Source: Geotalea uraniireducens Rf4 (GTDB taxonomy: Bacteria > Desulfobacterota > Desulfuromonadia > Geobacterales > Geobacteraceae). Taken from it: 32,000 nt of DNA. Where the stretch lies: positions 1,590,001 to 1,622,000 of the forward strand of contig NC_009483.1 in NCBI RefSeq assembly GCF_000016745.1, read 5' to 3'. Each line of letters starts with the position of its first letter. Within the stretch, counting starts at the first letter, position 1. The translations under genes were made by a program, and so were the position numbers. Below the pieces are notes generated by a model that saw nothing but the letters and a program-made list of their open reading frames with translations, had not been told where the DNA came from and searched no databases. Below, piece by piece: positions 1-19,203 of the stretch.

Positions 1-759
1 CTCACCGGTCAGGTGGGTAACGGTGGCATCTCATGGACAGGTGATGTGTTCTCACAGCCGCTCGCATTGCAGTTACGCCATTATGGCTGGAGGAAATGGA
101 CAAAGGAAAGCGCAAAGCGGATTGCATCCCCTGTCTTGCTGAAGGCATACCGCCGCGCGCGAATGCCGAAGGATTATTCATGGTGCCAATCATCCGCCAT
201 CCATCCTGATTTTGCTCGCCGCTTGAACCTGCTGGAACAACGATTGAACGACCCTGCCGAGCATCCGCGCAGTCCGCAAGAAAAGCGTTTTCAGATTCTC
301 CAGCCCGGCTGCTCCTTTGTCGGTGCGCTGCATGCCCAAATGGGGGCAGCTCACGGGCTGGAAATACGCGACCCTACTGCAGATGCACGTGTCCTCGCCT
401 TCACGCTCTCGGTGCCCGACTACATCTTCATGGACCCGACGACGGGGCTGGATCGTTGGCTCATCCGCGAGGCCATGAAGGGCCGTCTGCCGGACGAGGT
501 GCGTTTAAATCGCGAGAGGGGTCGTCAGGCGGGCGACCTTGTCCCTCGGCTTCGCGCCTGCGCCGACGAGGTAGAAACCGCCCTGGACGAGTTGGCCGTG
601 GGGCCTGCGGCCGCCTATCTAAATGTGCCTTATATGCGCGAGGTGTGGGCAATGGTCCGCACCGATGACACTCCGGAAGCTTTTCGCAAGTCGGTAACCA
701 TTCTCACCAGAGGCATCATGGCCGGATTGTGGGTGAATGGGTTCTACAATGTAACCTGA
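1..759 (+). CDS. Lasso peptide cyclase (asparagine synthetase-like), C-terminal part; 5' end is off the window
   Basis: Frame 1 is open from base 1 (LTGQVGNGGISWTG...). The product aligns colinearly with the C-terminal third of the 3881..5782 protein: GLEIRDPTAD.RVLAFTLSVPD.IFMDP.TGLDRWLIREAMK, RGRQAGD.VPRLRACA.EVETALDEL, and TRGIMAGLWVNGFY near both C-termini. Confidence 0.85.
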   Translation, partial: LTGQVGNGGISWTGDVFSQPLALQLRHYGWRKWTKESAKRIASPVLLKAYRRARMPKDYSWCQSSAIHPDFARRLNLLEQRLNDPAEHPRSPQEKRFQILQPGCSFVGALHAQMGAAHGLEIRDPTADARVLAFTLSVPDYIFMDPTTGLDRWLIREAMKGRLPDEVRLNRERGRQAGDLVPRLRACADEVETALDELAVGPAAAYLNVPYMREVWAMVRTDDTPEAFRKSVTILTRGIMAGLWVNGFYNVT

Positions 760-1079: not shown

Positions 1080-1583
1080 ATGGAAAACCATAACACCGCC
1101 ACGAAAAGGAGCGAAACTATCCATTTCCGCCCCATTACTGATGAGGATATGGAATTCCTGTACCGTCTGTACGCCTCCACGCGGCTCACGGAGATGGCCG
1201 TTACGGGATGGAACGAAACTCAGATCGAGGCTTTCCTGAGGATGCAGTTCAGGCTTCAGCACATGCAGTATATGCAGAACTATCCCGGTGCATCTTTCAA
1301 TATCGTTTTCATTGACGGCACGCCCGCCGGAAGGCTGTATGTGGACCGCAAAGAGGACAGGATGCTGGTCATCGACATCTCGCTGTTGCCTGACTTCAAG
1401 GGAAAAGGCGCGGGGGGAAGAATTTTGCGGGCACTGGTCGAAGAGGCCGATGCCAAGGGGCTTGTCATGAGTCTGCACGTGGAGAGAAGCAACCCGATTC
1501 TGCAGTTCTATAAAGCGCTCGGTTTTAGGGAACTGGAGTTGAGAGGCATGTACTACTACATGGAGAGAGAACTGTTAAATTGA
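1080..1583 (+). CDS. GNAT family N-acetyltransferase
   Basis: Acetyl-CoA binding motif A-like FKGKGAGGRILRALVEEA and a typical GNAT C-terminus (NPILQFYKALGFRE). The start is uncertain: GTG 1035, ATG 1050 and ATG 1080 are all possible and none has a clear SD. Confidence 0.7.
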   Translation: MENHNTATKRSETIHFRPITDEDMEFLYRLYASTRLTEMAVTGWNETQIEAFLRMQFRLQHMQYMQNYPGASFNIVFIDGTPAGRLYVDRKEDRMLVIDISLLPDFKGKGAGGRILRALVEEADAKGLVMSLHVERSNPILQFYKALGFRELELRGMYYYMERELLN

Positions 1584-1591
1584 GGAAAAAG

Positions 1592-1720
1592 ATGGGTGAA
1601 GGTTACCGGCTGTCACACCCAGACATTGGGGATTTCGTTCTTTTCCTCGGACCGGTGGATATCAAAGGGAGAGACGGGATGTATTACGAAGCGGTTTTTA
1701 ACCGTCTGACGTCACGCTAG
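1592..1720 (+). CDS. Small hypothetical ORF (42 aa) just upstream of the tail-collar triplet
   Basis: ATG preceded by GAGGA (1582-1586). Product is MGEGYRLSHPDIGDFVLFLGPVDIKGRDGMYYEAVFNRLTSR. It is below the ORF-track size cutoff. I cannot assign a family with confidence. Confidence 0.3.
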   Translation: MGEGYRLSHPDIGDFVLFLGPVDIKGRDGMYYEAVFNRLTSR

Positions 1721-1835
1721 AGAAAGGAGGTCAGGGGGGGCACGTGGGAAATGAGTACCTATGTGCGTACTCCATGGTTTGCTTCACCTTGGTCGGCAGC
1801 GCATAACAATCCAGATCAAAAGGAGGAACAAAAGC

Positions 1836-2378
1836 ATGAGCGATCCGTATCTTGGCGAGATCAGGATGTTCGGCGGAGACTATGCGCCGGAGAATTGGCA
1901 TTTTTGTGACGGCACTCTGCTGCCGATCAGTGGCTACGATGCGCTCTATTCACTCATCGGCACAGCCTACGGCGGTGACGGGATCAACAACTTCGCCCTG
2001 CCGGACCTGCGGGGTCGGCTTCCCATCGGCCAGGGACAGGGTACCGATTTGACGAACCACCCGGTCGGAGAGAAAAACGGCACTGAAACGGTAGGGTTAA
2101 CCCTGGCTCAAACACCGGCACACACTCATACGGTCAACGCTGCCTCGGGAACCGGCACGCAACCGAGCCCTGAAAACGGTGTCTGGGCTTCACTTGCGGC
2201 AGTCAACCAATTCATAACCCCCGCCGAGGTAAAATCACCCTCCATTATTCACGACATGAATTCGGCAGCCATAGGGACAGGCTATCAGGCTGGCGGAGCG
2301 GCTCACCTCAACATGATGCCCTCTTTCCCGCTGAGCTTTATCATCGCCTTACAGGGCGAATACCCGACAAGAGACTAA
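1836..2378 (+). CDS. Phage tail collar domain protein (MdpB/COG4675-like), paralogue 1
   Basis: N-terminus PYLGEIRMFGGDYAPENWHFCDGTLLPISGYDALYSLIGTAYGGDG..FALPDLRGR is the tail-collar signature. The C-terminus AHLNMMPSF..IIALQGEYPTR is typical of the family. AGGAGG lies 9 nt upstream of ATG 1836. Confidence 0.85.
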   Translation: MSDPYLGEIRMFGGDYAPENWHFCDGTLLPISGYDALYSLIGTAYGGDGINNFALPDLRGRLPIGQGQGTDLTNHPVGEKNGTETVGLTLAQTPAHTHTVNAASGTGTQPSPENGVWASLAAVNQFITPAEVKSPSIIHDMNSAAIGTGYQAGGAAHLNMMPSFPLSFIIALQGEYPTRD

Positions 2379-2394
2379 CATGGAGGAAATACTC

Positions 2395-2940
2395 ATGGCT
2401 GAACCTTTCTTAGGAGAAATAAGAATATTCCCGTTTGATTTTGCGCCGCGTGGCTGGGCGCTGTGCAACGGCGCGCTGCTGCCGATCGTTCAGAACCAGG
2501 CGCTCTATTCCCTGCTCAATACGACTTTCGGCGGCGACGGCAAAACTAACTTCGGTCTGCCGGATTTGCAGGGACGTGTTCCCATGCCTCCCGGAACCAA
2601 TCCGGTCTGCGGTAACATAGTCGCAGCCGGAAAAAAAGATGGCTCCGAAACGGTAACCCTCACGACCTCTCAAATCCCGCCGCATACCCATTCGGCTTTG
2701 GCAAACAGTATCAATGCCGACTTTGCGTCGCCCGTCACCCTCGCGGCCGGCAATATCTGGGCAAAAGCCGATGACCCCAGCTCAAATCCGGTCAATGCAT
2801 ATGAGTCCGGCGCGAATGCAGTCATGGACCAGAGCGCACTTTCGACTGCGGGTGGCGGCGGAGCCCATAACAACATGCAGCCGTATCAGGTGGTAAACTA
2901 TTGCATCGCCCTTATGGGTTTATATCCGACGCGGCCCTAG
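2395..2940 (+). CDS. Phage tail collar domain protein, paralogue 2
   Basis: PFLGEIRIFPFDFAPRGWALCNGALLPIVQNQALYSLLNTTFGGDG..FGLPDLQGR, then GGGGAHNNMQPYQVVNYCIALMGLYPTR. GGAGGA (2383-2388) sits upstream of ATG 2395. Confidence 0.85.
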   Translation: MAEPFLGEIRIFPFDFAPRGWALCNGALLPIVQNQALYSLLNTTFGGDGKTNFGLPDLQGRVPMPPGTNPVCGNIVAAGKKDGSETVTLTTSQIPPHTHSALANSINADFASPVTLAAGNIWAKADDPSSNPVNAYESGANAVMDQSALSTAGGGGAHNNMQPYQVVNYCIALMGLYPTRP

Positions 2941-2957
2941 GAAAGGAGGATTGATAC

Positions 2958-3491
2958 ATGGCTATTCCATTTATAGGTGAAATAAGGACTTTCGCGGGGA
3001 ATTTTGCGCCCTATGGCTGGTTTTATTGTCAAGGCCAACGGTTGAGCATTACCGAGTTTCAGGCCCTCTATGCGGTGATTGGTGCCACGTACGGCGGAGA
3101 TGGCAGTACCTATTTCAACCTGCCGAATCTGCAGGCGTACGCCCCCATGGGGCAAGGCGCCGGCACCGGCTTGACGCCGCGTACGCTCGGTCATGCCTGT
3201 GGCGTGCCGGCTACAACTCTGATCGACAACCAGATGCCCCCCCACACCCACGCGGCACAAGGGACCAACGCAACAGGTACCAGCAATAATCCCGCAAATC
3301 GAATCTGGGCCAAGGTTATATCGACACCTCAAATTCAACCGTATGGCAAGACGGTAGCCAGTACGCCGGTTGCCATGAAAGCCGATGCCCTTGCTTCCGC
3401 AGGTGGTGGATCTACTCACAGCAACATGCAACCTTACCAGGGGATCAACTTTATTATGGCCTGGCAGGGTGATTTCCCAGTCAGGCAGTAA
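2958..3491 (+). CDS. Phage tail collar domain protein, paralogue 3
   Basis: PFIGEIRTFAGNFAPYGWFYCQGQRLSITEFQALYAVIGATYGGDG..FNLPNLQ, then GGGSTHSNMQPYQGINFIMAWQGDFP. AAGGAGGA lies upstream of the ATG. Confidence 0.85.
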   Translation: MAIPFIGEIRTFAGNFAPYGWFYCQGQRLSITEFQALYAVIGATYGGDGSTYFNLPNLQAYAPMGQGAGTGLTPRTLGHACGVPATTLIDNQMPPHTHAAQGTNATGTSNNPANRIWAKVISTPQIQPYGKTVASTPVAMKADALASAGGGSTHSNMQPYQGINFIMAWQGDFPVRQ

Positions 3492-3632: not shown

Positions 3633-3803
3633 ATGGATCGTGATAAACAGTCCTGTCCAGACAGCAGCGTTATCAGCGGAGAATCAGTCGCAGCATCCAC
3701 CCGCAGCGCATGGAGTGCCCCGACTATTACGCGGATTGAGATCAAGCGGACCATGGCCGGAGCTTCGGTAGCTTTGGATTCAAGTTTATTCACCACTCAC
3801 TGA
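3633..3803 (+). CDS. Candidate lasso peptide precursor (A gene), 56 aa, absent from the ORF track
   Basis: GGAGGG lies 7 nt upstream of ATG 3633. Product is MDRDKQSCPDSSVISGESVAASTRSAWSAPTITRIEIKRTMAGASVALDSSLFTTH. It ends 77 nt upstream of the cyclase start on the same strand. Thr is at the penultimate leader position if the core starts at A42. Asp is at core position 8. A WxxPxI motif sits in the leader. Confidence 0.6.
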   Translation: MDRDKQSCPDSSVISGESVAASTRSAWSAPTITRIEIKRTMAGASVALDSSLFTTH

Positions 3804-3880
3804 TCTGATTATTTGTAGCCCCGAAAACAGTTCATAATTTGAGAAAATGTCCTGCAGATATGGTGGACGACCGGAAACGG

Positions 3881-5782
3881 ATGAGTGGAATTTTTGGCAT
3901 ATTTAATCGTAATGGCGATCCGGTTGCATCACATACGCTGGAGACGATGCAGTGCGTCATGGCTGAATGGGGACCGGACGGCGGTGACATACTGCTGGAT
4001 GGGGCCGTCGGTTTCGGACAGATGCGCCATTTTACTACTCCGGAAGCGCAATTTGAACTGATGCCGGTTAAATCCCGCGAATCGTTTTCATCCTGGAATG
4101 ACGGACGGAAGTTTGCGTTTACTGCCGCAGGACGTCTGGACAACAGGGAAGAACTCATCGGACGACTTTCAGCCAGCGATCGGCACACAGCAATTCCCGA
4201 CAGCGAACTCATGCTACGCGCCTATCAGGAGTGGGGAGAAAACTGCCCGGCGCGTCTGTTCGGCGACTGGGCCTTTGCCGTATGGCACCCGGAAGAAAAG
4301 CAGCTGTTTCTCGCGCGGGACCACCATGGACACACCGCGCTCTATTACTACGTCGATCCCCGCTTCTTTGTGTTCGCTTCTTCGCGCCAGGCACTGCTCG
4401 CTCTGCATCTGGCGCCGATGGAAATGGATGAACTCTACCTGGCCCAGGTACTGGTTTCATCGCCTGCCTATCACGGCGAGCGCACTATCTATAAACCGGT
4501 AAAACGTCTCCCCCCAGCCCACTCTCTTACGGTAACCCCTGACCATATGTCTACCCACCGCTACTGGCGTCTGGAAGATACGGCGGAACTGCATTTGCCG
4601 CGAAGGGAAGATTATGTAGCGGCTTTTACGGAACTGTTCGATGAGGCAGTGCGGTGCCGCCTTCGTTCGGACAGAAAGATCGCCGTCTCCCTGAGCGGTG
4701 GGCTGGATTCCGGATCGGTTGCCGCAACTGCGGCGAAATTTCTGAAAAGGGATGACAAGCGCCTATCCGCATTTTCCTCCGCACCATTATCGGATACCGG
4801 CATGTATGTGGGAAAACGCTTCGGTGACGAATTTTCTTTCGCGCAGAAGACCGCCGACCATTGCGGCAATATTGACCTGTATAAAATTACTGCCGACACA
4901 ATCTCGCCTATCCAGGCAATTCGCGCGATGTTGACGGTCAATAACGAACCCGCCCATGCCGCCGGAAATTTCTTCTGGCTTCAAGCTATCCGTCAGGCCG
5001 CCCGCTCCCACGGAAGCCGCGTACTCCTGACCGGGCAGATGGGAAACGCCGGGATCTCGTGGACCGGCTCGGTTTTTTCTCAACCGGCGGCCTTCCAGCG
5101 ACGACATTTGGGCTGGCAGCGCTGGGCGAAAGAACTGGCAAAACAGTATACGCCCTCTTCATTGTTGAATGCCTACCGGCAGTTGCGAAAACCACCTCCT
5201 GCACTGGGAAGCTTTTCCGCTTTGCACCCTGATCTGGCGCGCAGACTGAACCAGGCAGAACGCATGATGAGCGATACCGTGCACCATCCGCGTACCCCCT
5301 TGGAACAGCGCTGTCATATTATTATGCCAGGACGTTCCCATGGCGGATTTCGCCATGCCGAGAACGGTGTTGTTTACGGTCTTGAGATCCGCGACCCCAC
5401 CGCCGATGTCCGTGTGCTGGCCTTTACCCTGTCCGTGCCCGACCATATCTTCATGGACCCGAAGACAGGACTGGACCGTTGGCTCATCCGCGAGGCGATG
5501 AAAGAATGCCTGCCGGATGAAGTGCGCCTGAATCGCCGGAGAGGGCGTCAGGCGGGTGACATTGTCCCACGTCTGCGCGCCTGTGCCGCCGAGGTCGAAA
5601 CCGCCCTGGACGAACTGGCCTGTGGGCCTGCTGCCGCCTTTGTTAATGTGCCCTATATGCGCGAAGTGTGGGCGATGGTCCTTACAAAAGACACCCCGGA
5701 TACGTTCCTTCTGTCATTAACCGTCCTCACCAGGGGAATCATGGCCGGGTTGTGGGTGAACGGGTTCTACCATGTTTCCTGA
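3881..5782 (+). CDS. Lasso peptide cyclase (asparagine synthetase B homologue, McjC-like)
   Basis: The N-terminus MSGIFGIF has Ser in place of the AsnB nucleophile Cys. The PP-loop is SLSGGLDSGS. The length and C-terminal domain are typical. Upstream TTG 3839 and ATG 3860 are alternative starts. Confidence 0.9.
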   Translation: MSGIFGIFNRNGDPVASHTLETMQCVMAEWGPDGGDILLDGAVGFGQMRHFTTPEAQFELMPVKSRESFSSWNDGRKFAFTAAGRLDNREELIGRLSASDRHTAIPDSELMLRAYQEWGENCPARLFGDWAFAVWHPEEKQLFLARDHHGHTALYYYVDPRFFVFASSRQALLALHLAPMEMDELYLAQVLVSSPAYHGERTIYKPVKRLPPAHSLTVTPDHMSTHRYWRLEDTAELHLPRREDYVAAFTELFDEAVRCRLRSDRKIAVSLSGGLDSGSVAATAAKFLKRDDKRLSAFSSAPLSDTGMYVGKRFGDEFSFAQKTADHCGNIDLYKITADTISPIQAIRAMLTVNNEPAHAAGNFFWLQAIRQAARSHGSRVLLTGQMGNAGISWTGSVFSQPAAFQRRHLGWQRWAKELAKQYTPSSLLNAYRQLRKPPPALGSFSALHPDLARRLNQAERMMSDTVHHPRTPLEQRCHIIMPGRSHGGFRHAENGVVYGLEIRDPTADVRVLAFTLSVPDHIFMDPKTGLDRWLIREAMKECLPDEVRLNRRRGRQAGDIVPRLRACAAEVETALDELACGPAAAFVNVPYMREVWAMVLTKDTPDTFLLSLTVLTRGIMAGLWVNGFYHVS

Positions 5783-6578
5783 TTTCCTAGCCGACGTCTT
5801 TATCAATTACTCCGCTGTCCCTCCGTATCTTGATGGCGCACGATCCCGCGGCGTGCTCTGGCAGGCCGCGCCTGGTCGTTTTCTGCTCGACCTGCCCGAT
5901 GTGGCACGTTTTCTGGTGGAGTCCGGAACAAAGGTAACTATCGATCCGTCGCCAACGGCTGAAGAAGCGGATCTGCGCCGTTTTGCGCGGATGGCCCCGC
6001 TGGCGGCGCTCTGTTATCAGCGGAGCATGCTGGCTCTTCACGCTGCCGCCGTGGTCGGTCCAAGCGGTGCGATCCTGATCGCCGGGGATTCCGGAGCGGG
6101 CAAATCGACCCTTCTGGCAGCTATGCTGAAACGGGAGTGGAGCTTTCTTGCCGACGACCTGGCGGCGGTGTCTTTGGCTGAAAACGGACTGTCGATGGTA
6201 TATCCGGCCTTTCCGGAACTGGCTCTCTGGTCCGACGCCAGGGGAAAACTGGCGTTTGACGATAGCGACACCGGCAGACATCTCCTGCCCCGGGTAGAGA
6301 GCTTCGGCACCACGCCACAACCGCTGCGCGCACTCTTCCGCCTTGCCGTCCATAAGGGCGAGATTGAACTGGCCGACGTCACCGGGACAAGACTCTTCGA
6401 CACCCTCACCACGCTCTCGTACAACAGCCGGATTGCCGATGCCCTGTTGGAGCGCGCCGCCTTCATGCGCCAGGCTAGCGCCATCGCCCGGACGGTTCCG
6501 GTGCGCACCCTGCGAAGACCGCGTGATCGCTGGTGTGCGGGTGAGCTGGCCGATCTGCTGGAGGAATCCTATTCATGA
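5772..6578 (+). CDS. HPr kinase-like (HprK C-terminal domain-like) protein 1
   Basis: P-loop ILIAGDSGAGKSTLLAAM is followed by FLADDLAAV, as in the HprK C-terminal domain. The start overlaps the cyclase stop by 11 nt. Confidence 0.8.
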   Translation: MFPDFLADVFINYSAVPPYLDGARSRGVLWQAAPGRFLLDLPDVARFLVESGTKVTIDPSPTAEEADLRRFARMAPLAALCYQRSMLALHAAAVVGPSGAILIAGDSGAGKSTLLAAMLKREWSFLADDLAAVSLAENGLSMVYPAFPELALWSDARGKLAFDDSDTGRHLLPRVESFGTTPQPLRALFRLAVHKGEIELADVTGTRLFDTLTTLSYNSRIADALLERAAFMRQASAIARTVPVRTLRRPRDRWCAGELADLLEESYS

Positions 6579-7483
6579 CATATGCCTACTCATTCCACGG
6601 ACTGACCCTTTCCCTCCCCTTTCCCTGCCCGTTCCTGCCGCGCGTCGAGACCGTTTCCGCACCGGATGTGACGGTGGTCTACGGTCCGGTGGCCAGGGAA
6701 CTGGAACACGCCATGGCAACTGATGACAGTTGGGCAGCGGGGTATTGCTGGCAGGCAGCTCCGGGGCGCTACCTTCTCAAAGGGGGGATGAAGTCCGGGC
6801 GCTTTCTGGTGGAAGGCGGCACTAGCATTACCCTTCAGCGCAACGAGAATGCCGAAGATAAACGTATTCTGTTTCATCTTCTACATCCGGTAACCGCCGC
6901 CCTGTTCTGTCAGCGGGGCCTTTTGGCGTTGCACGCCAGCACGGCACACACACCGGCGGGAACCATTGCCCTGTGCGGCAGGTCACAGGCGGGCAAATCC
7001 ACTACCCTTGCGGCCCTGCTCCAGAAAAAAGGGTGCGCCATGGTCTCCGACGATATTACCATTGTGCGCTGTGCGGCGCATGACCGCGTTGAAGTCGTGG
7101 CCGGTTCGAGCGTTATGCACCTGTGGGACGACGCGGCGTACGGCATAGGTCTTGATATATCGGGCTGCGACCGCCACCCGGTGAGACGCGGCAAAGCGGC
7201 CCTGACCGCGCCGAGCATGCCATCTTCGGGGGCGACGCTGCTCCGGAAGCTCTGTATCCTGGAACCCGGTACGGGAAAAATTGTCGGCGTATCGAGGGTG
7301 ACAGGCGCTGACAAACTCGATGCCCTCTTGGAGTGCGTGTACGGTCCGCTTTTTCAGGAAGAGCACCCCGGGTTGTTCCCCCTCTTTTCCGCCACCGCCG
7401 AACAGGCGGACATATTCCGCATCCGCCGCCCCGAAAGCCGCTGGAGTCTGGACGATGTGGTTTCGGTGATACTCGATGCGTAA
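6575..7483 (+). CDS. HPr kinase-like protein 2 (divergent paralogue)
   Basis: P-loop IALCGRSQAGKSTTLAAL is followed by MVSDDITIV. The N-terminal region resembles kinase 1 (W.AAPGR.LL...G.FLVE.GT..T). It has an ATGA overlap with the upstream gene. Confidence 0.8.
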   Translation: MTYAYSFHGLTLSLPFPCPFLPRVETVSAPDVTVVYGPVARELEHAMATDDSWAAGYCWQAAPGRYLLKGGMKSGRFLVEGGTSITLQRNENAEDKRILFHLLHPVTAALFCQRGLLALHASTAHTPAGTIALCGRSQAGKSTTLAALLQKKGCAMVSDDITIVRCAAHDRVEVVAGSSVMHLWDDAAYGIGLDISGCDRHPVRRGKAALTAPSMPSSGATLLRKLCILEPGTGKIVGVSRVTGADKLDALLECVYGPLFQEEHPGLFPLFSATAEQADIFRIRRPESRWSLDDVVSVILDA

Positions 7484-8345
7484 GATTATCTGGCTGGCAT
7501 CATACCCGAAATCTGGCAACACCTGGATGCGCGTACTGCTGACCAACTACCTGCGCAACAGCGCCACACCCGTTGATATCAACAAGCTGGAAGGCGGTCC
7601 CATTGCCAGCGCACGCCTCTGGTTCGACGAATGGGTCGGCGTCGAGGCTGCGGAACTGGACGATAACGTCATAGAACGTCTGCGCCCCGGCGTCTATCGC
7701 TGCATGGCGGGCGAAACCCACGACACGTTGTACATGAAAGTTCACGATGCCTGGGGGCGCACTGACCGGGGGGAAGCGCTCTTTCCGGCGGATGTCACCG
7801 CCGGGGTGGTCTATATCGTGCGCAACCCGCTGGATATGGCCATGTCATGCGCCCATCACTGGGGGGTAGACATTGATACGGCGGCGGAAAGCATGTGCGA
7901 CCCGACGTTTGCCACCTCCCGTTCGCTTGGCGGACTGTCGGACCAGTTGCGCCAGAGCATGCTCTCTTGGAGCGGCCATGTGCAAAGCTGGCTGGATGAA
8001 TCGGGGCTGCCGGTGCATGTGGTGCGTTATGAAGACCTGCTTGCCGCTCCGGCGGCAACGTTCGGCGGGGTTGTCCGTTTCTGCGGTCTCCCTTTTGACG
8101 CTGCCCGGGTTGGCAAGGCGGTCGCCTTTTCCGATTTCTCCGAATTGCAGCGGCAGGAACGGGAAAAAGGGTTTCGCGAACGGTCGCTACGGGCTCCCGG
8201 CTCGTTTTTTCGTCGTGGACAGGCGGGCGCATGGCGCGAAGAACTGCCGCCTGAACTGGTCAACCGTCTGATCGCGGCCCATGGAGAGATGATGAAGAGG
8301 TTCGGATATACAACTCATCAAGGAGGGAATGACAATGTCGATTGA
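7476..8345 (+). CDS. PAPS-dependent sulfotransferase family protein
   Basis: IIWLASYPKSGNTWMR matches the 5'-PSB loop. IVRNPLDMAMS matches the 3'-PB region. FFRRGQAGAWREEL matches the C-terminal motif. It overlaps kinase 2 by 8 nt. Confidence 0.85.
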   Translation: MRKIIWLASYPKSGNTWMRVLLTNYLRNSATPVDINKLEGGPIASARLWFDEWVGVEAAELDDNVIERLRPGVYRCMAGETHDTLYMKVHDAWGRTDRGEALFPADVTAGVVYIVRNPLDMAMSCAHHWGVDIDTAAESMCDPTFATSRSLGGLSDQLRQSMLSWSGHVQSWLDESGLPVHVVRYEDLLAAPAATFGGVVRFCGLPFDAARVGKAVAFSDFSELQRQEREKGFRERSLRAPGSFFRRGQAGAWREELPPELVNRLIAAHGEMMKRFGYTTHQGGNDNVD

Positions 8346-8631
8346 TATGGAGAGCCTCATCGTACGCAACAACGAGATGATGTCCAGCGCCATGGATCGG
8401 GAGCTTGTGATCCTGAACATGGCAAAGGGCAACTACATCGGCCTTGACGAGATCGGCCGTCGCATATGGGAGCTGTTGGAAACGCCCCTTGGTGCGGAAG
8501 AACTGTGCGGGTTGTTGGGCCGGGAGTTCGACGCTTCCCCGGAGCAGATCACGGCGGACGTCCTGCCTTTCCTGGTCGAATTGGAAAGCGAGGGGATGGT
8601 GCATGATGTTACGGGCGGACGATCTGCGTAA
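8335..8631 (+). CDS. PqqD-like lasso leader-recognition protein (B1 / RRE)
   Basis: VILNMAKGNYIGLDEIGRRIWELLETPLGAEELCGLL..EF...PEQITADVLPFLVELESEGMV is the PqqD family pattern. AGGAGGG (8321-8327) lies 7 nt upstream of ATG 8335. ATG 8329 is an alternative start. Confidence 0.8.
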   Translation: MSIDMESLIVRNNEMMSSAMDRELVILNMAKGNYIGLDEIGRRIWELLETPLGAEELCGLLGREFDASPEQITADVLPFLVELESEGMVHDVTGGRSA

Positions 8632-9067
8632 GCTGTTCAGCCTTACCCTGGCGGAGGTTTGCCTGCTGCTGGAGGCCGCTTTCTGGCTCGGTATCTGCCG
8701 GCTGGCAATACCGCTTTTGCCCTTCCGCTGGATTGCGCCGTATCTGGGGACCCACATGGCCGAGTCCGCCAGTGTGCTTGATCCGCACGGCCGTGAGGTG
8801 CCCCTTGCCGTATCCAGGGCGATAGTCCGGGCGGCCTGGCGGCTCCCCTGGGATTGCAAATGCCTGGCCCAGGCCATGACGGGTAAGGCTATGCTCAAAC
8901 GGCGGGGGGTGCCGAGCACGCTTTACCTGGGGGTTGCCAAGGACAAGGAGCAGCTTGCCGCCCATGCCTGGCTGCGGTGCGGCGATATAATCCTGACCGG
9001 GGGGCAGGGAAAAGAGCGGTTTACGGTCGTATCATCCTTCGGGGACGACATCCGGTCACGCGGATAG
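8603..9067 (+). CDS. Lasso peptide leader peptidase (B2, transglutaminase-like Cys protease)
   Basis: The catalytic-type Cys lies in WDCKCLAQAM and the His in LAAHAWLRCGD. The N-terminal hydrophobic helix is typical of B2 proteins. GAGGGGA lies upstream of ATGATG 8603. It overlaps B1 by 29 nt. Confidence 0.85.
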   Translation: MMLRADDLRKLFSLTLAEVCLLLEAAFWLGICRLAIPLLPFRWIAPYLGTHMAESASVLDPHGREVPLAVSRAIVRAAWRLPWDCKCLAQAMTGKAMLKRRGVPSTLYLGVAKDKEQLAAHAWLRCGDIILTGGQGKERFTVVSSFGDDIRSRG

Positions 9068-9110
9068 GCGCAGCCGGCCTCAGCGATGACAGAAATATAA
9101 GGAAAATGAA

Positions 9111-9548
9111 ATGGCAACATGGTTTTGGTATGCAATAGCGGCAGCTATTCTTTACGGGTTGCACCAGGTCTTCACGAAGCTCGCTGCAGACAACATCTCC
9201 GATGGCCTTGGCGGCTTGGTGGTGGAAGCCGCTGCAGCTGTTACCATCGCAATATACCTTGTGTTTCTCTGGCTGACCAACAGTTGGACACAGAAAGCTA
9301 CAGCCACAGGAATATGGTACTCGATACTCACGGGAATCAGTGTTGGCGCAGGCACGGTCATGTTTTTCCTTCTCTTTCAAAAAGGCGGCCCGCTCTCAGC
9401 TGTTCCCATGGTGCTGGCGGGAGGCGCCGCACTCATGGCCGTTAGCGGCATCCTTTTTTTTAAAGAGCCTGCATCTTGGCCAAGGCTCCTCGGAATTGCG
9501 TTTTCAATCGCCGGGCTTTTTTTATTGAGGTATTCGCCTGAAAAATGA
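9111..9548 (+). CDS. Small EamA/DMT-type integral membrane protein (possible exporter)
   Basis: 145 aa, four to five hydrophobic spans, single EamA-like half-transporter pattern. Same strand, 43 nt after B2. Confidence 0.65.
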   Translation: MATWFWYAIAAAILYGLHQVFTKLAADNISDGLGGLVVEAAAAVTIAIYLVFLWLTNSWTQKATATGIWYSILTGISVGAGTVMFFLLFQKGGPLSAVPMVLAGGAALMAVSGILFFKEPASWPRLLGIAFSIAGLFLLRYSPEK

Positions 9549-9610: not shown

Positions 9611-9895
9611 TCAAGCAGCCAAATCGAGCCTTACCTTGCGGCCGGCGCGGGCTTCCAGAGTAATCAGCATTTCCAGGCTAAATCTGTCCCACTTTCCCCG
9701 CATCAAGTCCGATACGCGCGACTGCCCGACACCAAGGCGCTGTGCGGCTTCCATCTGGGTCATGCCGCTCGAACGAATAAACTCGCGCAGATCGGTCATT
9801 AGCTCTGCACGCATCTGAAGAATCGCCGCCTCCGCAGGGTCGAATCCCAGATCAACAAAAACGTTGCCACTCGATTCAGTGATTGGCTCTTTCAT
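9611..9895 (-). CDS. XRE-family HTH antitoxin (HigA-like)
   Basis: SGNVFVDLGF..AE...MRAELM..L..FI...GMTQMEAAQRLGVGQSRVSDLMRGK...FSLEML is the classic pattern of the partner of Gp49/HigB-type toxins. It lies 3 nt downstream of the toxin stop. Confidence 0.85.
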   Translation of the reverse strand: MKEPITESSGNVFVDLGFDPAEAAILQMRAELMTDLREFIRSSGMTQMEAAQRLGVGQSRVSDLMRGKWDRFSLEMLITLEARAGRKVRLDLAA

Positions 9896-9898
9896 TAC

Positions 9899-10213
9899 TC
9901 AATCTCCTATTTGACAATAACGGCGCCGGGCAATTTCGATATCTTCATGTCGTGTTTTTTGAGTCTTCTTATGAAAGGCATGGAGAACATAAACGGCATC
10001 CGCGAACTTGGCGACATACAGCACACGCCATTCACCCAACACGCGAATACGTATCTCCCGTACCCCAGGTCCCACCGCATTCATCGGTTTCCAATCGGAA
10101 GGGTCCATCCCTCGCTGGATCGCGTGTAGCTCAAAGCCGGTCTGACGCCGAACTTCGGCTGGAAAATCGCGCAGGTCATCAAGAGAGGATCCGATAAACT
10201 TGAGGGGTTTTAT
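9899..10213 (-). CDS. HigB/Gp49-like (RelE superfamily) toxin; the full-length frame begins with ATA, not a canonical start
   Basis: The open frame reads IKPLKFIGSSLDDLRDFPAEVRRQTGFELHAIQRGMDPSDWKPM..GPGVREIRIRVLGEWRVLYVAKFADAVYVLHAFHKKTQKT. The first canonical start, ATG 10108, would delete the conserved N-terminus. Confidence 0.7.
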   Translation of the reverse strand: MKPLKFIGSSLDDLRDFPAEVRRQTGFELHAIQRGMDPSDWKPMNAVGPGVREIRIRVLGEWRVLYVAKFADAVYVLHAFHKKTQKTRHEDIEIARRRYCQIGD

Positions 10214-10444: not shown

Positions 10445-10768
10445 ATGCCGCTTAACATTGAGATAATCGGCTCACTTGCAGCAGGCGACCAAATAGCGTT
10501 GAAGCGCCATTCAATCGTGCGTATGCGCCAACGTCGGATATCTGCCGACGAAGTGAAAGAAGCGCTTCTCTCCTGCAGGCTGATTGAGGATTATCCAACT
10601 GATCGCCCCTTGCCCAGCGGGCTGGTCCTTGGCTATACTGCCAACGATAGGGTCATTCATGTAGTTGTTGCCATAGATGAAGATGAACCAATGCTCTGGG
10701 TGATTACCGTGTACGAGCCGACCATTGACGAGTGGGAGGAAGGTTTTGACCGAAGGAGAACAGTATGA
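10445..10768 (+). CDS. DUF4258-like toxin-type protein
   Basis: The pattern H...RM.QR.IS..EV.EAL......EDYP.D.P.PS.L.LG.T...R..HVV.A.......VITVYEP...W is what I recall for DUF4258. It overlaps the downstream zinc-finger gene by 4 nt (ATGA). Confidence 0.75.
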   Translation: MPLNIEIIGSLAAGDQIALKRHSIVRMRQRRISADEVKEALLSCRLIEDYPTDRPLPSGLVLGYTANDRVIHVVVAIDEDEPMLWVITVYEPTIDEWEEGFDRRRTV

Positions 10769-10995
10769 AATGCCCGTTATGTAGAGGAAAGATGGTCCCG
10801 GGAAAGACCAATCTGCCGTTCAGCCTCGAAGGTGGTAATGTCATTGTGGTCATCAACGTCCCTGCGCTGGTCTGTGAGCAGTGTGGCGATGATTTCGTCG
10901 AGATCGACGTGGTAAGGAAGGTCGAAAAGATCGTTGACCGTATTGAGCACGACGGCATCAGCATGGGCATGGTCGAATATGACAGGGCGGCTTGA
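10765..10995 (+). CDS. MqsA/YgiT-type zinc-finger antitoxin-like protein
   Basis: MKCPLCRGKM...... then ...VCEQCGD. Two CxxC pairs sit in the spacing typical of YgiT-type zinc fingers. 76 aa. Confidence 0.75.
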   Translation: MKCPLCRGKMVPGKTNLPFSLEGGNVIVVINVPALVCEQCGDDFVEIDVVRKVEKIVDRIEHDGISMGMVEYDRAA

Positions 10996-12835: not shown

Positions 12836-14485
12836 TTATGCGCCCAGCGCTGCCTTCAGGTCCGCATCTGCCGTGGTGATCTGGCCGATGTTGAAGTTTT
12901 CCACCAGGAAGTTGAGGACGTTCGGTGTCAGGTACGCCGGCAGGGCCGGTCCGAGCTTGATGTTCTTGATCCCCAGGTGGAGGAGCGAGAGCAGGATCAC
13001 ATGGGCCTTCTGCTCATACCAGGAGAGGATGAAGGAGAGCGGCAGGTCGTTGACTCCGCAGTTGAAGGCGCCTGCCAGGGCCAGGGCGATCTGGACCGCC
13101 GAGTAGGCGTCGTTGCACTGCCCCACGTCGAGGAGGCGCGGGATGCCGCCGATGTCGCCGAACTCCAGCTTGTTGAAGCGGTACTTGCCGCAGGCGAGCG
13201 TCAGGATGACGCAGTCTTTGGGCACTATCTCGGCCAGTTCCGTGAAGTAGTTGCGCCCCGGTTTGGCGCCGTCGCAGCCGCCGATGAGGAAGAAATGCTT
13301 GATGGCGCCGCTCTTGACCCCTTCGATGACCTTGTCTGCCACCCCCAGGACCGCATTGTGGCCGAAGCCGGTGAGGATCTCCTTGCCCGGTGCATCGGGC
13401 AGGTCGGGGCACTCAAGGGCCTTGTTGATGACCTCGGAGAAGTTCCAGCCGGTCATGTGCTTGATGCCGGGCCAGCCGACCATGCCCCAGGTGAAGAGCC
13501 GGTCTTTGTAGGAGTCGGCCGGGCGCTGGATGCAGTTGGTGTTGAAGATGATGGCGCCGGGGAAGTCCGGGAATTCCTTGTGCTGATCCTGCCAGGCGCC
13601 GCCGAAGTTGCCGTAGAGGTGCGAATACTTCTTGAGGCCGGGATAGCCGTGGGCCGGCAGCATTTCGCCGTGGGTGTAGACGTCAATTCCCTTGCCTTCG
13701 GTCTGCTTGAGGAGCTCCTCGATCATGCGCAGGTCGTGGCCGGAGACGAGGATCCCCTTGTTCTTTCTGGTGCCGAGCTGGACCTTGGTCGGGACCGGCT
13801 GCCCGTAGTGGTCGATATGTCCCTGGTTGAGCATCCCCATCACCTTGATGTTCATCTTGCCGCATTCCATGGAGAGGCCGACAAAGTCCATCAGGCCTTT
13901 GGTTGGGTCGGTGGTGGCGGCGAGGGCCTTGTGGAAGAAGGCGAAGACTTCTTCGTCGGTCTTGCCGAGGATGAAGGCGTGGTCGGCATAGGCAGCCATC
14001 CCCTTGAGGCCGTAAATGAGCACCTCGATGGCGGAACGGATATCCGGGTCGGTGTGGTGGGTGTTGATGCCGTGGGCCTCTCCCTGCTTGACCAGGCCGA
14101 CAAGATCATTGGCGATCACCCAGGCGGCGGGCCCGTCAGAGATCTGCGGGGCGTGATTGCCGGTCTTTTCCCGATAGGCGGTCTCATACAGTGCCTTGAT
14201 CTTCTCCTTGTTGTCGAAGCACTTGCGGAGCTTGGCGGCGATGCTGACCGGGTCGAAGTCCACGTTGGTGACGGTGGTGAAGAGCCCTTCGAACATGAAA
14301 AGGTCGATGGTCTCGTCCCTGGCGCCGAATTCGCGGGCCTTGTCGGCATAGATGGCGAGTCCTTTCAGACCGTAGATCATCAAGTCCTGCAGGGCGGCAA
14401 CCTCGGGATTTTTACCGCAAACCCCCATGATATCACAGCCGGTACCCTTGGCAGCCTGTTCACACTGGTTACAAAACATTGACAT
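12836..14485 (-). CDS. hcp: Hybrid cluster protein (hydroxylamine reductase)
   Basis: N-terminus MSMFCNQCEQAAKGTGC..GVCGK carries the Cys cluster. The 549-aa length and colinear Hcp motifs fit throughout. AAGGAGGAG lies upstream of ATG 14485. The upstream ORF-track extension lacks an SD. Confidence 0.95.
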   Translation of the reverse strand: MSMFCNQCEQAAKGTGCDIMGVCGKNPEVAALQDLMIYGLKGLAIYADKAREFGARDETIDLFMFEGLFTTVTNVDFDPVSIAAKLRKCFDNKEKIKALYETAYREKTGNHAPQISDGPAAWVIANDLVGLVKQGEAHGINTHHTDPDIRSAIEVLIYGLKGMAAYADHAFILGKTDEEVFAFFHKALAATTDPTKGLMDFVGLSMECGKMNIKVMGMLNQGHIDHYGQPVPTKVQLGTRKNKGILVSGHDLRMIEELLKQTEGKGIDVYTHGEMLPAHGYPGLKKYSHLYGNFGGAWQDQHKEFPDFPGAIIFNTNCIQRPADSYKDRLFTWGMVGWPGIKHMTGWNFSEVINKALECPDLPDAPGKEILTGFGHNAVLGVADKVIEGVKSGAIKHFFLIGGCDGAKPGRNYFTELAEIVPKDCVILTLACGKYRFNKLEFGDIGGIPRLLDVGQCNDAYSAVQIALALAGAFNCGVNDLPLSFILSWYEQKAHVILLSLLHLGIKNIKLGPALPAYLTPNVLNFLVENFNIGQITTADADLKAALGA

Positions 14486-14541
14486 GGTTACTCCTCCTTT
14501 TTTACGGGACAAACTCCCTGTGTAGGCTTTAATATCTGATA

Positions 14542-14569
14542 AGTATAGCCTGTCTCCGGCGTATTTCAA
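14542..14569 (-). promoter_or_regulatory. Candidate hcp promoter
   Basis: On the minus strand: TTGAAA, 16-nt spacer, TATACT. It lies about 55 nt upstream of the hcp ATG. Confidence 0.45.
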
Positions 14570-14601
14570 TCTTGTCCGGAATGGACCTTCTTCCAATTCC
14601 A

Positions 14602-14700
14602 AATCAAGGCGCTATCTTCGTTGGCTCGTCTTCGGCTCCTCAACGTACTATCTGTACGCCTTCATCACCTCACTCCTCGCCGCCTTGATTTCATCCTTGA
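14602..14700. repeat. Structured intergenic element (family shared with 17831..17962)
   Basis: The perfect 10-bp inverted repeat AATCAAGGCG (14602-14611) / CGCCTTGATT (14681-14690) encloses the hairpin CGTAC-tatct-GTACG. The blocks ATCTTCG, TTCGGC, CGTAC..TGTACGCC and CCTTGATTT recur in the same order at 17831-17962. Confidence 0.45.
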
Positions 14701-14738
14701 TTTGAAATTGAAATTACTCCCTATTTGCAGGATACTCT

Positions 14739-14752
14739 TTGACCTTGGTCAA
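14739..14752. promoter_or_regulatory. Perfect CRP/FNR-type palindrome TTGAC-N4-GTCAA
   Basis: TTGACCTTGGTCAA. Its centre is 65 nt upstream of the methyltransferase ATG (14811) and about 200 nt upstream of the predicted hcp promoter. Confidence 0.4.
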
Positions 14753-14810
14753 GTTTTGGCGGAAAATGTAATGATGCGGTATTGACGGAGAAATCGGCAA
14801 GGGGTAGGGT

Positions 14811-15380: not shown

Positions 15381-15406
15381 TGCCAAAGCGCCATTTTCAA
15401 TCCGGT

Positions 15407-16360: not shown

Positions 16361-16375
16361 TGAGAGGTAAGCAGC

Positions 16376-19178: not shown

Positions 19179-19203
19179 ACTGTAAATCATAGCTGCATAA
19201 AAA

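Follow-up and report, generated by a model that had tools for sequence, protein, structure and literature searches.

The Gura_1351 locus of Geotalea (Geobacter) uraniireducens Rf4 is a real, catalogued lasso-peptide cluster, and we lean towards reading it as a two-precursor, two-cyclase class II cluster that makes phosphorylated and sulfated lasso peptides. The window, the whole 32-kb stretch of DNA analysed, matches Rf4 at 100%, and the cluster has the gene order A1-C1-GNAT-(DUF6916 remnant)-three phage-tail Collar genes-A2-C2-K1-K2-ST-B1-B2 (Table 1). From C2 onwards neighbouring genes overlap, by 11 nt (C2/K1), 4 nt (K1/K2), 8 nt (K2/ST), 11 nt (ST/B1) and 29 nt (B1/B2), with ATG starts for B1 at 8335 and B2 at 8603. 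L081, a public contig of identical sequence, carries independently made gene calls, and these start at the same positions as the ORFs of the window. A first-pass annotation of this DNA had described a unit at 3633–9548. Its ORFs, overlaps and motifs were all recovered in the ORF listing, profile searches backed every gene assignment (the kinases weakly as single sequences), and HMMs and motifs bore out a split-B lasso operon in which two paralogues resemble HprK and the PAPS-type sulfotransferase is intact. The extent it gave was too small, as the L081 gene calls and related loci place the cluster upstream to the window edge and past it.

Table 1. Features of the Rf4 lasso-peptide locus, numbered from the first letter of the window
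Feature	Position	Strand	Basis
C1, second lasso cyclase, C-terminal third	13..759	+	Pfam Asn_synthase 2.3e-12
GNAT acetyltransferase	1080..1583	+	Acetyltransf_1 4.6e-10
DUF6916 remnant, 42 aa	1592..1720	+	tblastn; Pfam DUF6916 "weak" on gene call
Collar-domain protein 1, phage-tail, 180 aa	1836..2378	+	Pfam Collar 2.1e-26
Collar-domain protein 2, phage-tail, 181 aa	2395..2940	+	Pfam Collar 7.6e-28; gene call in L081
Collar-domain protein 3, phage-tail, 177 aa	2958..3491	+	Pfam Collar 3.9e-24
A2, precursor, 56 aa	3633..3803	+	ORF; RBS GGAGGG 8 nt upstream
C2, Asn-synthetase-like macrolactam synthetase	3881..5782	+	Asn_synthase 2.8e-31
K1, HprK-like kinase	5772..6578	+	HprK_rel_A 1.1e-9; Hpr_kinase_C 1.5e-4
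K2, HprK-like kinase	6575..7483	+	HprK_rel_B 1.4e-4; paralogue of K1
ST, PAPS-type (cytosolic-class) sulfotransferase	7476..8345	+	Sulfotransfer_1 1.1e-21
B1, PqqD-like RiPP recognition element (RRE)	8335..8631	+	PqqD 4.3e-17; lasso_PqqD_Bac 2e-17
B2, transglutaminase-fold leader peptidase	8603..9067	+	Transglut_core3 2.4e-29; lasso_biosyn_B2 9.5e-32
Small EamA/DMT-type membrane protein	9111..9548	+	EamA 2.8e-6, just under Pfam cut-off

The upstream half, comprising the second precursor–cyclase pair, the GNAT gene and three Collar-domain genes, is syntenic in relatives. A1 and C1 both start upstream of the window; in L081, C1 is 639 aa long, shares 63.5% identity with C2 and is preceded by A1, a terminator and an AT-rich region. 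C2 carries the motifs MSGIFGIF and SLSGGLDSGS and also matches GATase_7 (4.1e-25) and NF033535 lass_lactam_cya (2.4e-105). B2 has DCKCLAQAM and AHAWLRCGD, and B1 lies immediately 3' of ST in 36 of 60 related lasso loci.

The A1 precursor has 57 aa and the core LSTGSVNDGDGSTNEG. The A2 leader, ...AWSAPTITRIEIKRTM, has a WxxP RRE-type motif and Thr at −2, and its 15-aa core, AGASVALDSSLFTTH, predicts an Ala1–Asp8 ring. An HMM places A2 in a family of 32 precursors found directly beside the cyclases of related clusters. Among the 30 unique cores of this family, Gly4 occurs in 26, Ser/Thr5 in 23 and Ser/Thr13 in 26; A2 is a divergent member, with Ser4 in place of Gly4-Ser5. Kinase number tracks precursor type. 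In single-kinase clusters the precursor ends in Ser in all nine candidates, which is the paeninodin rule as known from characterised paeninodin-type systems, whereas just 5/30 cores of two-kinase clusters do so, and these clusters conserve Gly4-Ser5, Asp8 and Ser/Thr13. The translated A2 indeed does not end in Ser, as had been noticed at first pass. From these conservation patterns, the likeliest targets of modification are Ser/Thr13, close to the C-terminus, and ring Ser5 in canonical members such as A1. The earlier proposal that the tail carries several anionic O-modifications is plausible; the comparisons point to Ser/Thr13 in the tail and also into the ring.

Among lasso clusters, this one belongs to the paeninodin-like, kinase-bearing branch. 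K1 (GDSGAGKST...LADD) and K2 (GRSQAGKST...VSDD) are paralogues with 34% identity (E 7e-31); K1 resembles the lone kinase of one-kinase clusters more closely than K2 does, and K2 is specific to the two-kinase subfamily. Orthologues of both keep the HprK His, Walker A and (A/S)DD elements across many phyla: His90, GDSGAGKS and LADD in K1, and His120, GxSxxGKS and DD159-160, invariant among 36 homologues, in K2. A profile of the 36-member kinase family has HprK/P crystal structures as its top matches (E 4e-8), and 32 of the 36 members match Pfam Hpr_kinase_C. A confident AlphaFold (AF2) model of K2 (pLDDT 92.5) finds its best PDB fold matches in ATP-dependent PEP carboxykinase (E 2.8e-8), the fold class that also holds HprK/P. 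The predicted kinase function draws on about 55 alignable residues and this fold class; none of the characterised lasso kinases matches closely.

ST looks active, as all PAPS-binding and catalytic motifs are kept. It contains YPKSGNTW, RNPLDMAMS and FFRRGQAGAW, and PKSGNTW, K88/H90, RxPxDxxxS and FFRxG are conserved among 91 homologues. Its nearest solved relatives are the glycopeptide-aglycone sulfotransferases Teg12, Teg14 and StaL (1.9e-16 to 1.4e-10). These enzymes sulfate constrained peptide antibiotics and target phenols; Tyr is missing from most cores of the two-kinase precursor family, and we know of no biochemical precedent for Ser/Thr O-sulfation in the clade of ST. Real sulfation is supported because some relatives carry genes for PAPS synthesis: cysD with cysN-cysC, or cysC alone, lies in or beside lasso clusters with kinase and ST genes (L083, L021, L007, L009 and L051). 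The 32-kb window has no PAPS-synthesis genes. A kinase adjoins ST in 61 of 80 related genome loci, and the kinase–ST–RRE module is spread over many phyla. Within the lasso loci, K-ST-B1 is contiguous in 33/60, and L090 and L091 hold additional PqqD-K-ST modules, a pattern suggesting that the RRE guides these enzymes to the precursor while it is linear.

The near-constant pairing of kinase and ST would also fit a scheme, rather unlikely in our judgement, in which the kinases phosphorylate the peptide but ST, instead of sulfating a free Ser/Thr hydroxyl, acts on a handle made by the other tailoring enzymes, either the phosphate (giving a phosphosulfate) or a sugar that NTP_transf_5 adds to the phosphate, as in pseudomycoidin-type phosphoglycosylation. 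Sugars are the substrates of several bacterial sulfotransferases, NodH and Stf0 among them. NTP_transf_5 occurs with the module in 24 of the 60 lasso loci and in 10 of 13 two-kinase loci, and characterised relatives elongate the Ser-phosphate with polyphosphate or hexose (review PMC8498205). However, the window lacks NTP_transf_5, yet ST is intact and apparently translationally coupled, and its nearest solved relatives use peptide aglycones rather than sugars. To our knowledge, no Sulfotransfer_1 enzyme is known to make a phosphosulfate.

In the pathway that we propose, B1 would bind the WxxP...T(−2) leader of A1 and A2, K1 and K2 would phosphorylate core Ser/Thr hydroxyls with ATP while the peptide is still linear, and the PAPS-dependent ST would O-sulfate a further Ser/Thr hydroxyl. 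B2 would then cut off the leader and C1 or C2 would form an eight-residue macrolactam, from residue 1 to Asp8, round a short tail, yielding strongly anionic lasso peptides of 15–16 residues. We infer this order, the sites and the presence of both groups on the peptide against an observed background of gene identities, synteny, motif conservation, the precursor family and the co-clustering of PAPS genes in relatives. Phosphate or sulfate could instead serve as a leaving group, with elimination to dehydroalanine or dehydrobutyrine and no persistent anion. Class III/IV lanthipeptides acquire these residues by kinase-then-lyase chemistry, and in the case of CurM a sulfotransferase primes a hydroxyl for elimination. 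A 2026 review cites a lasso peptide that contains Dha and is made by a "hybrid biosynthetic system". Neither the window nor the conserved module contains a lyase or other eliminase, and the lasso HprK-type kinases characterised so far leave stable phosphoserine, which makes this route very improbable.

The GNAT and three-Collar cassette is a separate module that accompanies this cluster type. GNAT, its first gene, has a 100% identical counterpart among G. uraniireducens proteins; orthologues (34–74% identity) stand beside Collar triads near lasso-K-ST genes in L008, L009, L015, L054 and L080, and GNAT genes are called at the same position in L083, L090 and L091. The gene call for Collar protein 1 matches a public protein exactly and Collar protein 1 also hits a PHROG tail protein (2.4e-23), Collar protein 2 has HxH and H..N motifs invariant across the family alignment, and Collar protein 3 weakly matches the tip of the T4 gp12 short tail fibre. 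The triad probably makes up a heterotrimeric binding protein resembling a fibre tip. In the closest relatives the triad and GNAT lie in the cluster, directly 5' of A-C-K1-K2-ST, and K1, K2 and ST might conceivably target the three Collar proteins, or another protein, instead of the lasso precursor. We give this little credence, since in 54/60 K-ST lasso loci no Collar gene lies within 10 kb, Collar-GNAT cassettes occur without kinase, ST or lasso genes, K-ST is tied to the PqqD RRE, and precursor type follows kinase number. Between GNAT and the triad, the DUF6916 remnant corresponds to the C-terminal 37 residues of a protein of about 99 aa in relatives; in tblastn with the L090 and L087 proteins only residues 63–98 match, the N-terminal half being missing in Rf4.

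At the downstream end, the EamA gene is probably a mere neighbour, because it is not conserved with the cluster (no homologue at any of 80 related loci) and its composition differs (GC3 0.54 versus 0.61–0.76 for C2 to B2, with B2 itself at 0.76). The stretch from B2 to EamA showed no terminator-like site and the gene is possibly co-transcribed, but its membership of the cluster is doubtful. The first-pass annotation correctly saw no ABC exporter near the operon, and an HMM scan found none anywhere in the 32-kb window. The small DMT protein, which it placed where an ABC exporter or an isopeptidase normally sits, is no conserved replacement for the exporter, given the missing homologues and the GC3 drop, and a new export solution through EamA is disfavoured by what relatives carry at the same place. 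The nearest Geobacteraceae, like most other relatives with two kinases, have an ABC exporter and/or NTP_transf_5: an ABC transporter follows B2 in L002, L004, L007 and L008 (Geobacteraceae/Desulfuromonadaceae), with NTP_transf_5 too in L002, L007 and L008 and also cysC in L007. The Rf4 window has neither gene, nor a remnant of either, and with relatives so equipped at the EamA position this absence looks like loss.

Lacking a dedicated exporter and NTP_transf_5, and with DUF6916 truncated, the cluster may be partly decayed or silent. In the fuller form of this idea, its 3' end was lost by rearrangement beside the two toxin–antitoxin-like pairs that come straight after EamA, no product is exported, and the DMT gene in place of an ABC gene is an accident of the deletion junction; the composition break at the B2/EamA boundary would fit. 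We consider such decay unlikely on balance. None of the eight biosynthetic ORFs is broken, nor is either precursor, and the catalytic motifs are conserved and the start/stop overlaps tight. What follows B1/B2 varies in the nearest relatives, L089–L091, as well, and variation at the 3' end may therefore be normal; a transporter encoded elsewhere could serve export.

A functional cluster for phosphorylated and sulfated products remains our preferred reading. Genome mining listed the Gura_1351 lasso cluster in 2012–2014; Letzel et al. 2014 (PMC4289311) include it and mention that some of their listed clusters have genes for HPr kinase and sulfotransferase, so the architecture had been catalogued before. 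Putative sulfotransferases in Firmicutes kinase-type clusters are credited to Zhu et al. 2016 in a 2021 review. The searchable literature yielded no characterised product of the Rf4 cluster or of any K-ST lasso cluster. Nor does that literature, which extends to a June 2026 review on lasso modifications, report any lasso peptide carrying sulfate, in keeping with the first-pass statement that none had been characterised. The Rf4 cluster belongs to the paeninodin-type phospho-lasso family, and its products should be lasso peptides bearing phosphate and, probably, sulfate. The cluster family occurs in hundreds of genomes and may provide the first sulfated lasso peptide.

The lasso operon of Geotalea uraniireducens Rf4 encodes a precursor (A2), a cyclase (C2), two HprK-like kinase paralogues (K1 and K2), a PAPS-type sulfotransferase (ST), a PqqD-like RRE protein (B1) and a leader peptidase (B2). 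The ORFs, positions and overlaps reported by the first-pass annotation were all present, with start/stop overlaps of 11, 4, 8, 11 and 29 nt from C2 to B2, and the starts agree with those called independently on L081, a public contig of identical sequence. Cyclase, PqqD-like RRE, B2 and sulfotransferase assignments received strong Pfam and NCBIfam support, and the C, B1 and B2 components that define a class II lasso cluster were all identified by HMM. The limits 3633–9548 originally assigned to the unit proved too narrow. L081 and the window are identical across 9,739 nt, and L081 reaches 3.4 kb further upstream; the first nucleotide of the window lies within C1, a second cyclase gene. The full order is a terminator and AT-rich region, A1, C1, a GNAT gene, a DUF6916 remnant, three genes for phage-tail Collar-domain proteins (PF07484), A2, C2, K1, K2, ST, B1, B2 and a small DMT-type membrane protein gene (EamA). 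With A1 and C1 located upstream, the cluster thus has two precursor–cyclase pairs but a single B1/B2. Tandem cyclases are also present in the related locus L083. Scanning the cluster for promoters and terminators gave no signal exceeding that of shuffled sequence, and Rfam and tRNA scans of the whole window gave no matches.

Features of the Rf4 lasso cluster, its flank and related public loci (L-numbered contigs)
Feature	Location	Strand	Remarks
A1 and C1, upstream region	L081 2030-4210		A1 57 aa, core LSTGSVNDGDGSTNEG
C1 (639 aa in full), C-terminal third	window 13-759		gene starts upstream of the window; 63.5% identical to C2
GNAT and three-Collar cassette	window 1080-3491		
DUF6916 remnant, 42 aa	window 1592-1720		between GNAT and first Collar gene
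Three Collar genes	window 1836-3491		
Precursor A2, 56 aa	window 3633-3803	+	ORF with GGAGGG ribosome-binding site
Cyclase C2	window 3881-5782	+	lass_lactam_cya 2.4e-105, Pfam match
K1	window 5772-6578	+	HprK_rel_A 1e-9
K2	window 6575-7483	+	paralogue of K1
ST	window 7476-8345	+	Sulfotransfer_1 1.1e-21
B1	window 8335-8631	+	lasso_PqqD_Bac 2e-17, Pfam match
B2	window 8603-9067	+	lasso_biosyn_B2 9.5e-32, Pfam match
EamA-type protein	window 9111-9548	+	
Toxin-antitoxin-like pair	window 9611-10108	-	Gp49/HigB-like and HTH_37 antitoxin
Toxin-antitoxin-like pair	window 10445-10995	+	DUF4258 and MqsA-like zinc-ribbon protein
PAPS-synthesis genes	L083 6939-9718 (L083/L084)		within/beside related lasso-kinase-sulfotransferase cluster
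PAPS-synthesis genes	L021 14164-16987		
PAPS-synthesis genes	L007 14433-14981		
PAPS-synthesis genes	L009 3-1364		
PAPS-synthesis genes	L051 12359-12901		
Extra RRE-kinase-sulfotransferase module	L090 14044-17998		small ORF and radical SAM gene
Extra RRE-kinase-sulfotransferase module	L091 12400-14469		neither of these
Tandem Collar genes, viral contig	L095 3315-6528		
Tandem Collar genes, viral contig	L099 1-5426		

The kinase assignment was weak for single sequences, for which PDB searches with K1 and K2 gave only marginal P-loop matches, but it was supported by paralogy, a family profile and a structural model. K1 and K2 share 34% identity (E 7e-31). With a 36-member K1/K2 profile, four HprK/P crystal structures ranked first (E 4e-8 to 2e-7), in an alignment that pairs the catalytic His, the P-loop and the ADD motif, and 32 of the 36 members match Hpr_kinase_C in Pfam. 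The cluster thus contains the HPr kinase/phosphorylase homologue typical of paeninodin-type systems. The K2 structure predicted by AlphaFold (pLDDT 92.5, pTM 0.89) resembles ATP-dependent PEP carboxykinases (E 2.8e-8, TM about 0.57), a fold class that includes the HprK/P catalytic domain. The His, Walker A and (A/S)DD motifs are kept in both K1-type and K2-type orthologues and, on this retention, both kinases are probably active. The single kinases of one-kinase clusters score nearer to K1 than to K2, pointing to K2 as the paralogue that was added. Taken together, the ORFs, overlaps, HMM matches, paralogy, profile and fold evidence confirm the initial observation; the finding stands, and so does the core of its interpretation.

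ST carries the motifs of the Sulfotransfer_1 class, namely the 5'-phosphosulfate loop, the 3'-phosphate motifs and Lys-x-His. Across 91 homologues, YPKSGNTW (K12), K88-V-H90, R116-N-P-L-D120...S124 and FFRRGQAGAW are conserved at 95% or more, and the closest solved relatives are Teg12, Teg14 and StaL (E 1.9e-16 to 1.4e-10). Genes for PAPS synthesis, either cysD with a cysN-cysC fusion (APS kinase) or cysC, lie within or beside related clusters in L083/L084, L021, L007, L009 and L051 and count as indirect evidence for PAPS as the donor; a search of the window for cysDNC remnants found none. An APS-kinase-like role for the HprK paralogues was also considered and rated unlikely, as their motifs are HprK-type and relatives have a true cysC.

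To place this arrangement, species-representative genomes were scanned with ST; at least 516 stretches were found to encode a relative, and the best 80 loci went into the comparison. More than 500 species-level genomes carry the ST family, and the great majority of the 80 loci are lasso clusters with an adjacent kinase. Among these best 80 of at least 516, lasso genes lie within 10 kb of ST in 60 and a kinase directly beside it in 61. The sulfotransferase stands alone in the lowest-scoring loci (Parvibaculum, Sneathiella). Kinase, ST and B1 are contiguous in 33 of the 60 lasso loci. The K1-K2-ST order was found in 13 of the 80, in hosts from Geobacteraceae, Desulfuromonadaceae, Acidobacteriota, Sporomusa, Armatimonadota, Brocadiaceae, Chloroflexota, Riflebacteria and Paramagnetospirillum. 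Extra modules of a PqqD gene, in one case a small ORF, an HprK-like gene and a sulfotransferase gene adjoin the main cluster in two loci, suggesting that the RRE-kinase-sulfotransferase trio is a portable RiPP tailoring unit.

The precursors indicate where the modifications might be placed. In A2, a leader with a YxxP-type motif, ending in AWSAPTITRIEIKRTM, precedes the core AGASVALD8SSLFTTH, and Thr -2 and Asp8 identify it as a class II precursor; 30 related cores follow the same Thr(-2)/Asp8 pattern. An HMM built from candidates adjoining cyclases yielded 32 precursors; their 30 unique cores are 14–18 residues long, and the leaders follow the consensus W-x-x-P-x-h-T-x-h-(D/E)-h-(K/R)-(K/R)-T-(M/L). 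Several related clusters encode three to five precursors. Core position 4 is Gly in 26 of the 30 cores, position 5 is Ser/Thr in 23 and position 13 is Ser/Thr in 26; Asp at position 8 (30/30) is imposed by the extraction pattern. A1 is a canonical family member, while A2 is divergent, with nearest relatives of the form FGAHSG(T/A)DSTVF(T/S)T... in the related loci L089 and L090. As originally noted, the precursor lacks a C-terminal Ser: A2 ends in ...TTH and A1 in ...NEG, so neither offers the acceptor of paeninodin-type kinases. Within the two-kinase family only 5 of the 30 cores end in Ser. By contrast, a motif scan of single-kinase clusters with a sulfotransferase (L015, L019, L021, L026, L039, L047, L074 and the minus-strand cluster of L083) found a C-terminal Ser in all nine precursor candidates, the residue that characterised paeninodin-type systems need. 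Iteration of the precursor HMM reached no precursors from single-kinase clusters. This contrast between one-kinase clusters (C-terminal Ser) and two-kinase clusters (Ser5, Ser/Thr13) predicts the modification sites.

The reading best supported by these data, which we judge somewhat better than an even bet, has four steps. The B1 RRE would present the linear precursor; K1 and K2 would phosphorylate Ser/Thr hydroxyls and ST would sulfate a Ser/Thr hydroxyl, likely at Ser/Thr13 and, in canonical members, Ser5; B2 would then remove the leader; and C1 or C2 would form the lactam between residue 1 and Asp8. Gene identities, conserved motifs, gene order, the precursor rules and the clustering of PAPS genes are direct observations, while the sequence of steps, the modified sites and sulfate on the peptide are inferred. 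ST might instead act on a phosphate or on a sugar handle, which we regard as unlikely. A nucleotidyltransferase adds hexose to phosphate in pseudomycoidin, according to a 2021 review (PMC8498205), and a nucleotidyltransferase gene (NTP_transf_5, PF14907) is present in 24 of the 60 lasso loci and 10 of the 13 two-kinase loci among the best 80 of at least 516; in the window, neither NTP_transf_5 nor ABC remnants were found. Alternatively, the modifications could serve as leaving-group activation toward Dha/Dhb. No lyase is encoded, and we therefore give this reading very little credence.

Export is where the Rf4 cluster departs from its relatives. The reported absence of an ABC exporter held: neither an ABC_tran search of the large ORFs nor tblastn detected a transporter or remnant in the window, so the exporter of paeninodin-type clusters is missing, while an ABC transporter is present in 19 of the 60 lasso loci among the best 80 of at least 516. 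EamA, the DMT-type protein, was rejected as a conserved exporter because homologues occur in none of the best 80 of at least 516 loci; there is also a break in GC3 between B2 (0.76) and EamA (0.54), at boundary 9067–9111, and in L089, the closest relative, B2 is followed by an unrelated gene. The lack of an exporter beside a DMT gene is thus most likely a strain-specific loss next to an unrelated neighbour, and the Rf4 cluster may be without export functions. Directly downstream of EamA and the cluster are two toxin-antitoxin-like pairs, which may mark a rearrangement-prone flank. It is conceivable, though improbable in our estimate, that the Rf4 copy is decayed or silent, with exporter and nucleotidyltransferase lost; this would be compatible with the four-step reading. 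Further downstream, window 12836–28744 is ordinary chromosome. It encodes a hybrid-cluster (prismane) protein, two methyltransferases, a CdaA diadenylate cyclase with a YbbR domain, a LysM-NlpC/P60 hydrolase, a B12-radical SAM-TPR protein, an AsmA/YhdP-like protein, a CheX-domain protein and a PAS/HAMP histidine kinase.

The upstream cassette contains three consecutive Collar genes of about 180 codons with a conserved HxH motif, the arrangement expected of DSLV2-type tripartite tail proteins. The proteins are paralogues with 39–41% mutual identity and invariant H96/H98, and they weakly match the T4 gp12 fibre tip. Collar 1 starts at an internal Met, by exact match to a public protein, as its longest ORF begins too early. 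The DUF6916 remnant is cut to the C-terminal 37 residues; its full-length counterparts have about 99 aa (L087, L090) or 100 aa (L085). GNAT, in part with DUF6916, and three Collar genes lie directly 5' of A-C-K1-K2-ST in the window, L083, L090 and L091; L009 has the same order and L089 a Collar triad at the contig edge. Other arrangements beside lasso, kinase and ST genes were found in L008, L015, L054 and L080, and in L067 and L078 Collar genes accompany them with no GNAT detected. The loci in which the cassette adjoins such genes come from several phyla. Where GNAT, Collar and DUF6916 genes are neighbours without lasso genes (L085, L087), the GNAT is a more distant relative. The GNAT relatives with at least 60% identity repeatedly agree with ST or K2 relatives in the length of their longest contig and may form a lasso-dedicated subclade. 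A scan of viral contigs with the Collar 3 sequence alone gave no matches, but an alignment-based scan did: in IMG/VR contigs (L092–L104; one, two or three triads in L092–L100 and L104), Collar genes occur in tandem groups of 3, 6 or 9, sometimes with GNAT and never with lasso genes.

In the virophage DSLV2, three consecutive PF07484 proteins assemble 1:1:1 into a heterotrimeric fibre, which binds Synechococcus lipopolysaccharide (PMC12724248). The three consecutive genes here are of comparable size, and the multiples of three fit this heterotrimer. Unlike in DSLV2, the window triad is chromosomal, paired with GNAT and inside a RiPP cluster, with no virion genes nearby. By analogy, the cassette probably encodes a heterotrimeric binding protein. 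Since it also occurs without lasso genes and in viral contigs, the gene neighbourhoods argue that it is an independent module linked to one clade of lasso clusters. That the kinases and ST modify the Collar proteins, encoded directly 5' of A-C-K1-K2-ST, we consider highly improbable; the cassette is also found apart from lasso genes. As a separate association, the cassette may connect phage-derived binding proteins with RiPP chemistry; no papers connecting lasso peptides with a tail collar were found in the searchable literature.

The Rf4 cluster itself is known to genome miners. Letzel et al. 2014 list it under the asparagine synthase Gura_1351, with reference to two earlier genome-mining studies, and note HPr kinase and sulfotransferase genes in some lasso clusters, whose role they call unclear (PMC4289311). 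A 2021 review describes HprK-type kinases that phosphorylate the C-terminal Ser of linear precursors, for paeninodin and polyphosphorylated proteobacterial peptides, and mentions putative sulfotransferases in some Firmicutes lasso clusters (PMC8498205). As relayed there from Zhu et al. 2016, some Firmicutes kinase-type clusters carry putative sulfotransferase and nucleotidyltransferase genes. Given this listing and the review's mention of sulfotransferases, the kinase-sulfotransferase lasso architecture is already catalogued rather than newly discovered, which settles a point the first-pass annotation had left open. Its other expectation stood, in that no sulfated lasso peptide was found in the open-access literature searched. 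Sulfation is not among the lasso modifications listed by a June 2026 review, and a 2024 paper counts RaxX, some methanobactins, conopeptides and two lanthipeptides as the known sulfonated RiPPs (PMC11143521).

Predicted from sequence, the Rf4 operon represents a two-kinase, internal-Ser variant of the kinase-sulfotransferase-RRE lasso family. More tentatively, and with doubts outweighing confidence, we propose that this module, which some genomes supply through clustered cysDNC, would give the first lassos both phosphorylated and O-sulfated on Ser/Thr, a class of very small polyanionic peptides widespread across many phyla; that the bulky anionic groups may act as steric plugs of the 6–8-residue tail; and that in Geobacter/Sporomusa/Chloroflexota-type clusters the peptide would work with a GNAT-modified, heterotrimeric Collar complex resembling a phage fibre tip, as one peptide and binding-protein system. 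Sulfation is rare among RiPPs, and the family provides a concrete, large set of targets, of which Rf4 is not the best member for first expression. If the proposal is true, peptide engineering would gain useful tools in RRE-guided Ser/Thr sulfotransferases and internal-site HprK-type kinases.

Among known systems, the cluster resembles that of paeninodin (padeCAKB1B2D, Paenibacillus dendritiformis) in its split B1/B2, its Asn-synthetase-like cyclase and its HPr-kinase homologue for tailoring the still linear precursor. Unlike paeninodin, it has two kinases, an ST translationally coupled between K2 and B1, a second A-C pair and the GNAT/Collar cassette, in a Desulfuromonadales host; its precursors lack the terminal Ser phosphorylated by paeninodin-type kinases, and the cluster has no ABC exporter. 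With StaL, Teg12 and Teg14, which sulfate phenolic hydroxyls of non-ribosomal peptides, ST shares the PKxGNTW 5'-phosphosulfate loop and the RNPxD...S 3'-phosphate motif. The substrates of those enzymes are likewise constrained peptides, but most cores here lack Tyr and the predicted acceptor is therefore an aliphatic Ser/Thr hydroxyl.

The polyphosphorylated lasso system of Sphingobium yanoikuyae (Zhu et al. 2016 FEBS Lett, via PMC8498205) similarly combines a Gram-negative host with an HprK-type kinase for Ser of the linear precursor. As relayed by that review, it has one kinase and a C-terminal Ser acceptor with no sulfotransferase reported, whereas in the Rf4 family the conserved hydroxyls, Ser5 and Ser/Thr13, are internal. 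Relatives of the Rf4 cluster have the same kind of nucleotidyltransferase (PF14907) after B2 as pseudomycoidin of Bacillus pseudomycoides, but the window lacks this gene and pseudomycoidin lacks a sulfotransferase. SslA/SscA (SslST), RaxX (RaxST) and the Thr-sulfonated methanobactins also derive from RiPP clusters with a PAPS-dependent sulfotransferase (PMC11143521). SslST and RaxST, however, sulfonate Tyr; SslST is TPST-like rather than StaL-like, and these are other RiPP classes, with no kinase partner reported (PMC11143521). The ssl and ssc clusters carry cysC/D/N genes (PMC11143521), as do the L083 and L021 relatives of the Rf4 cluster.
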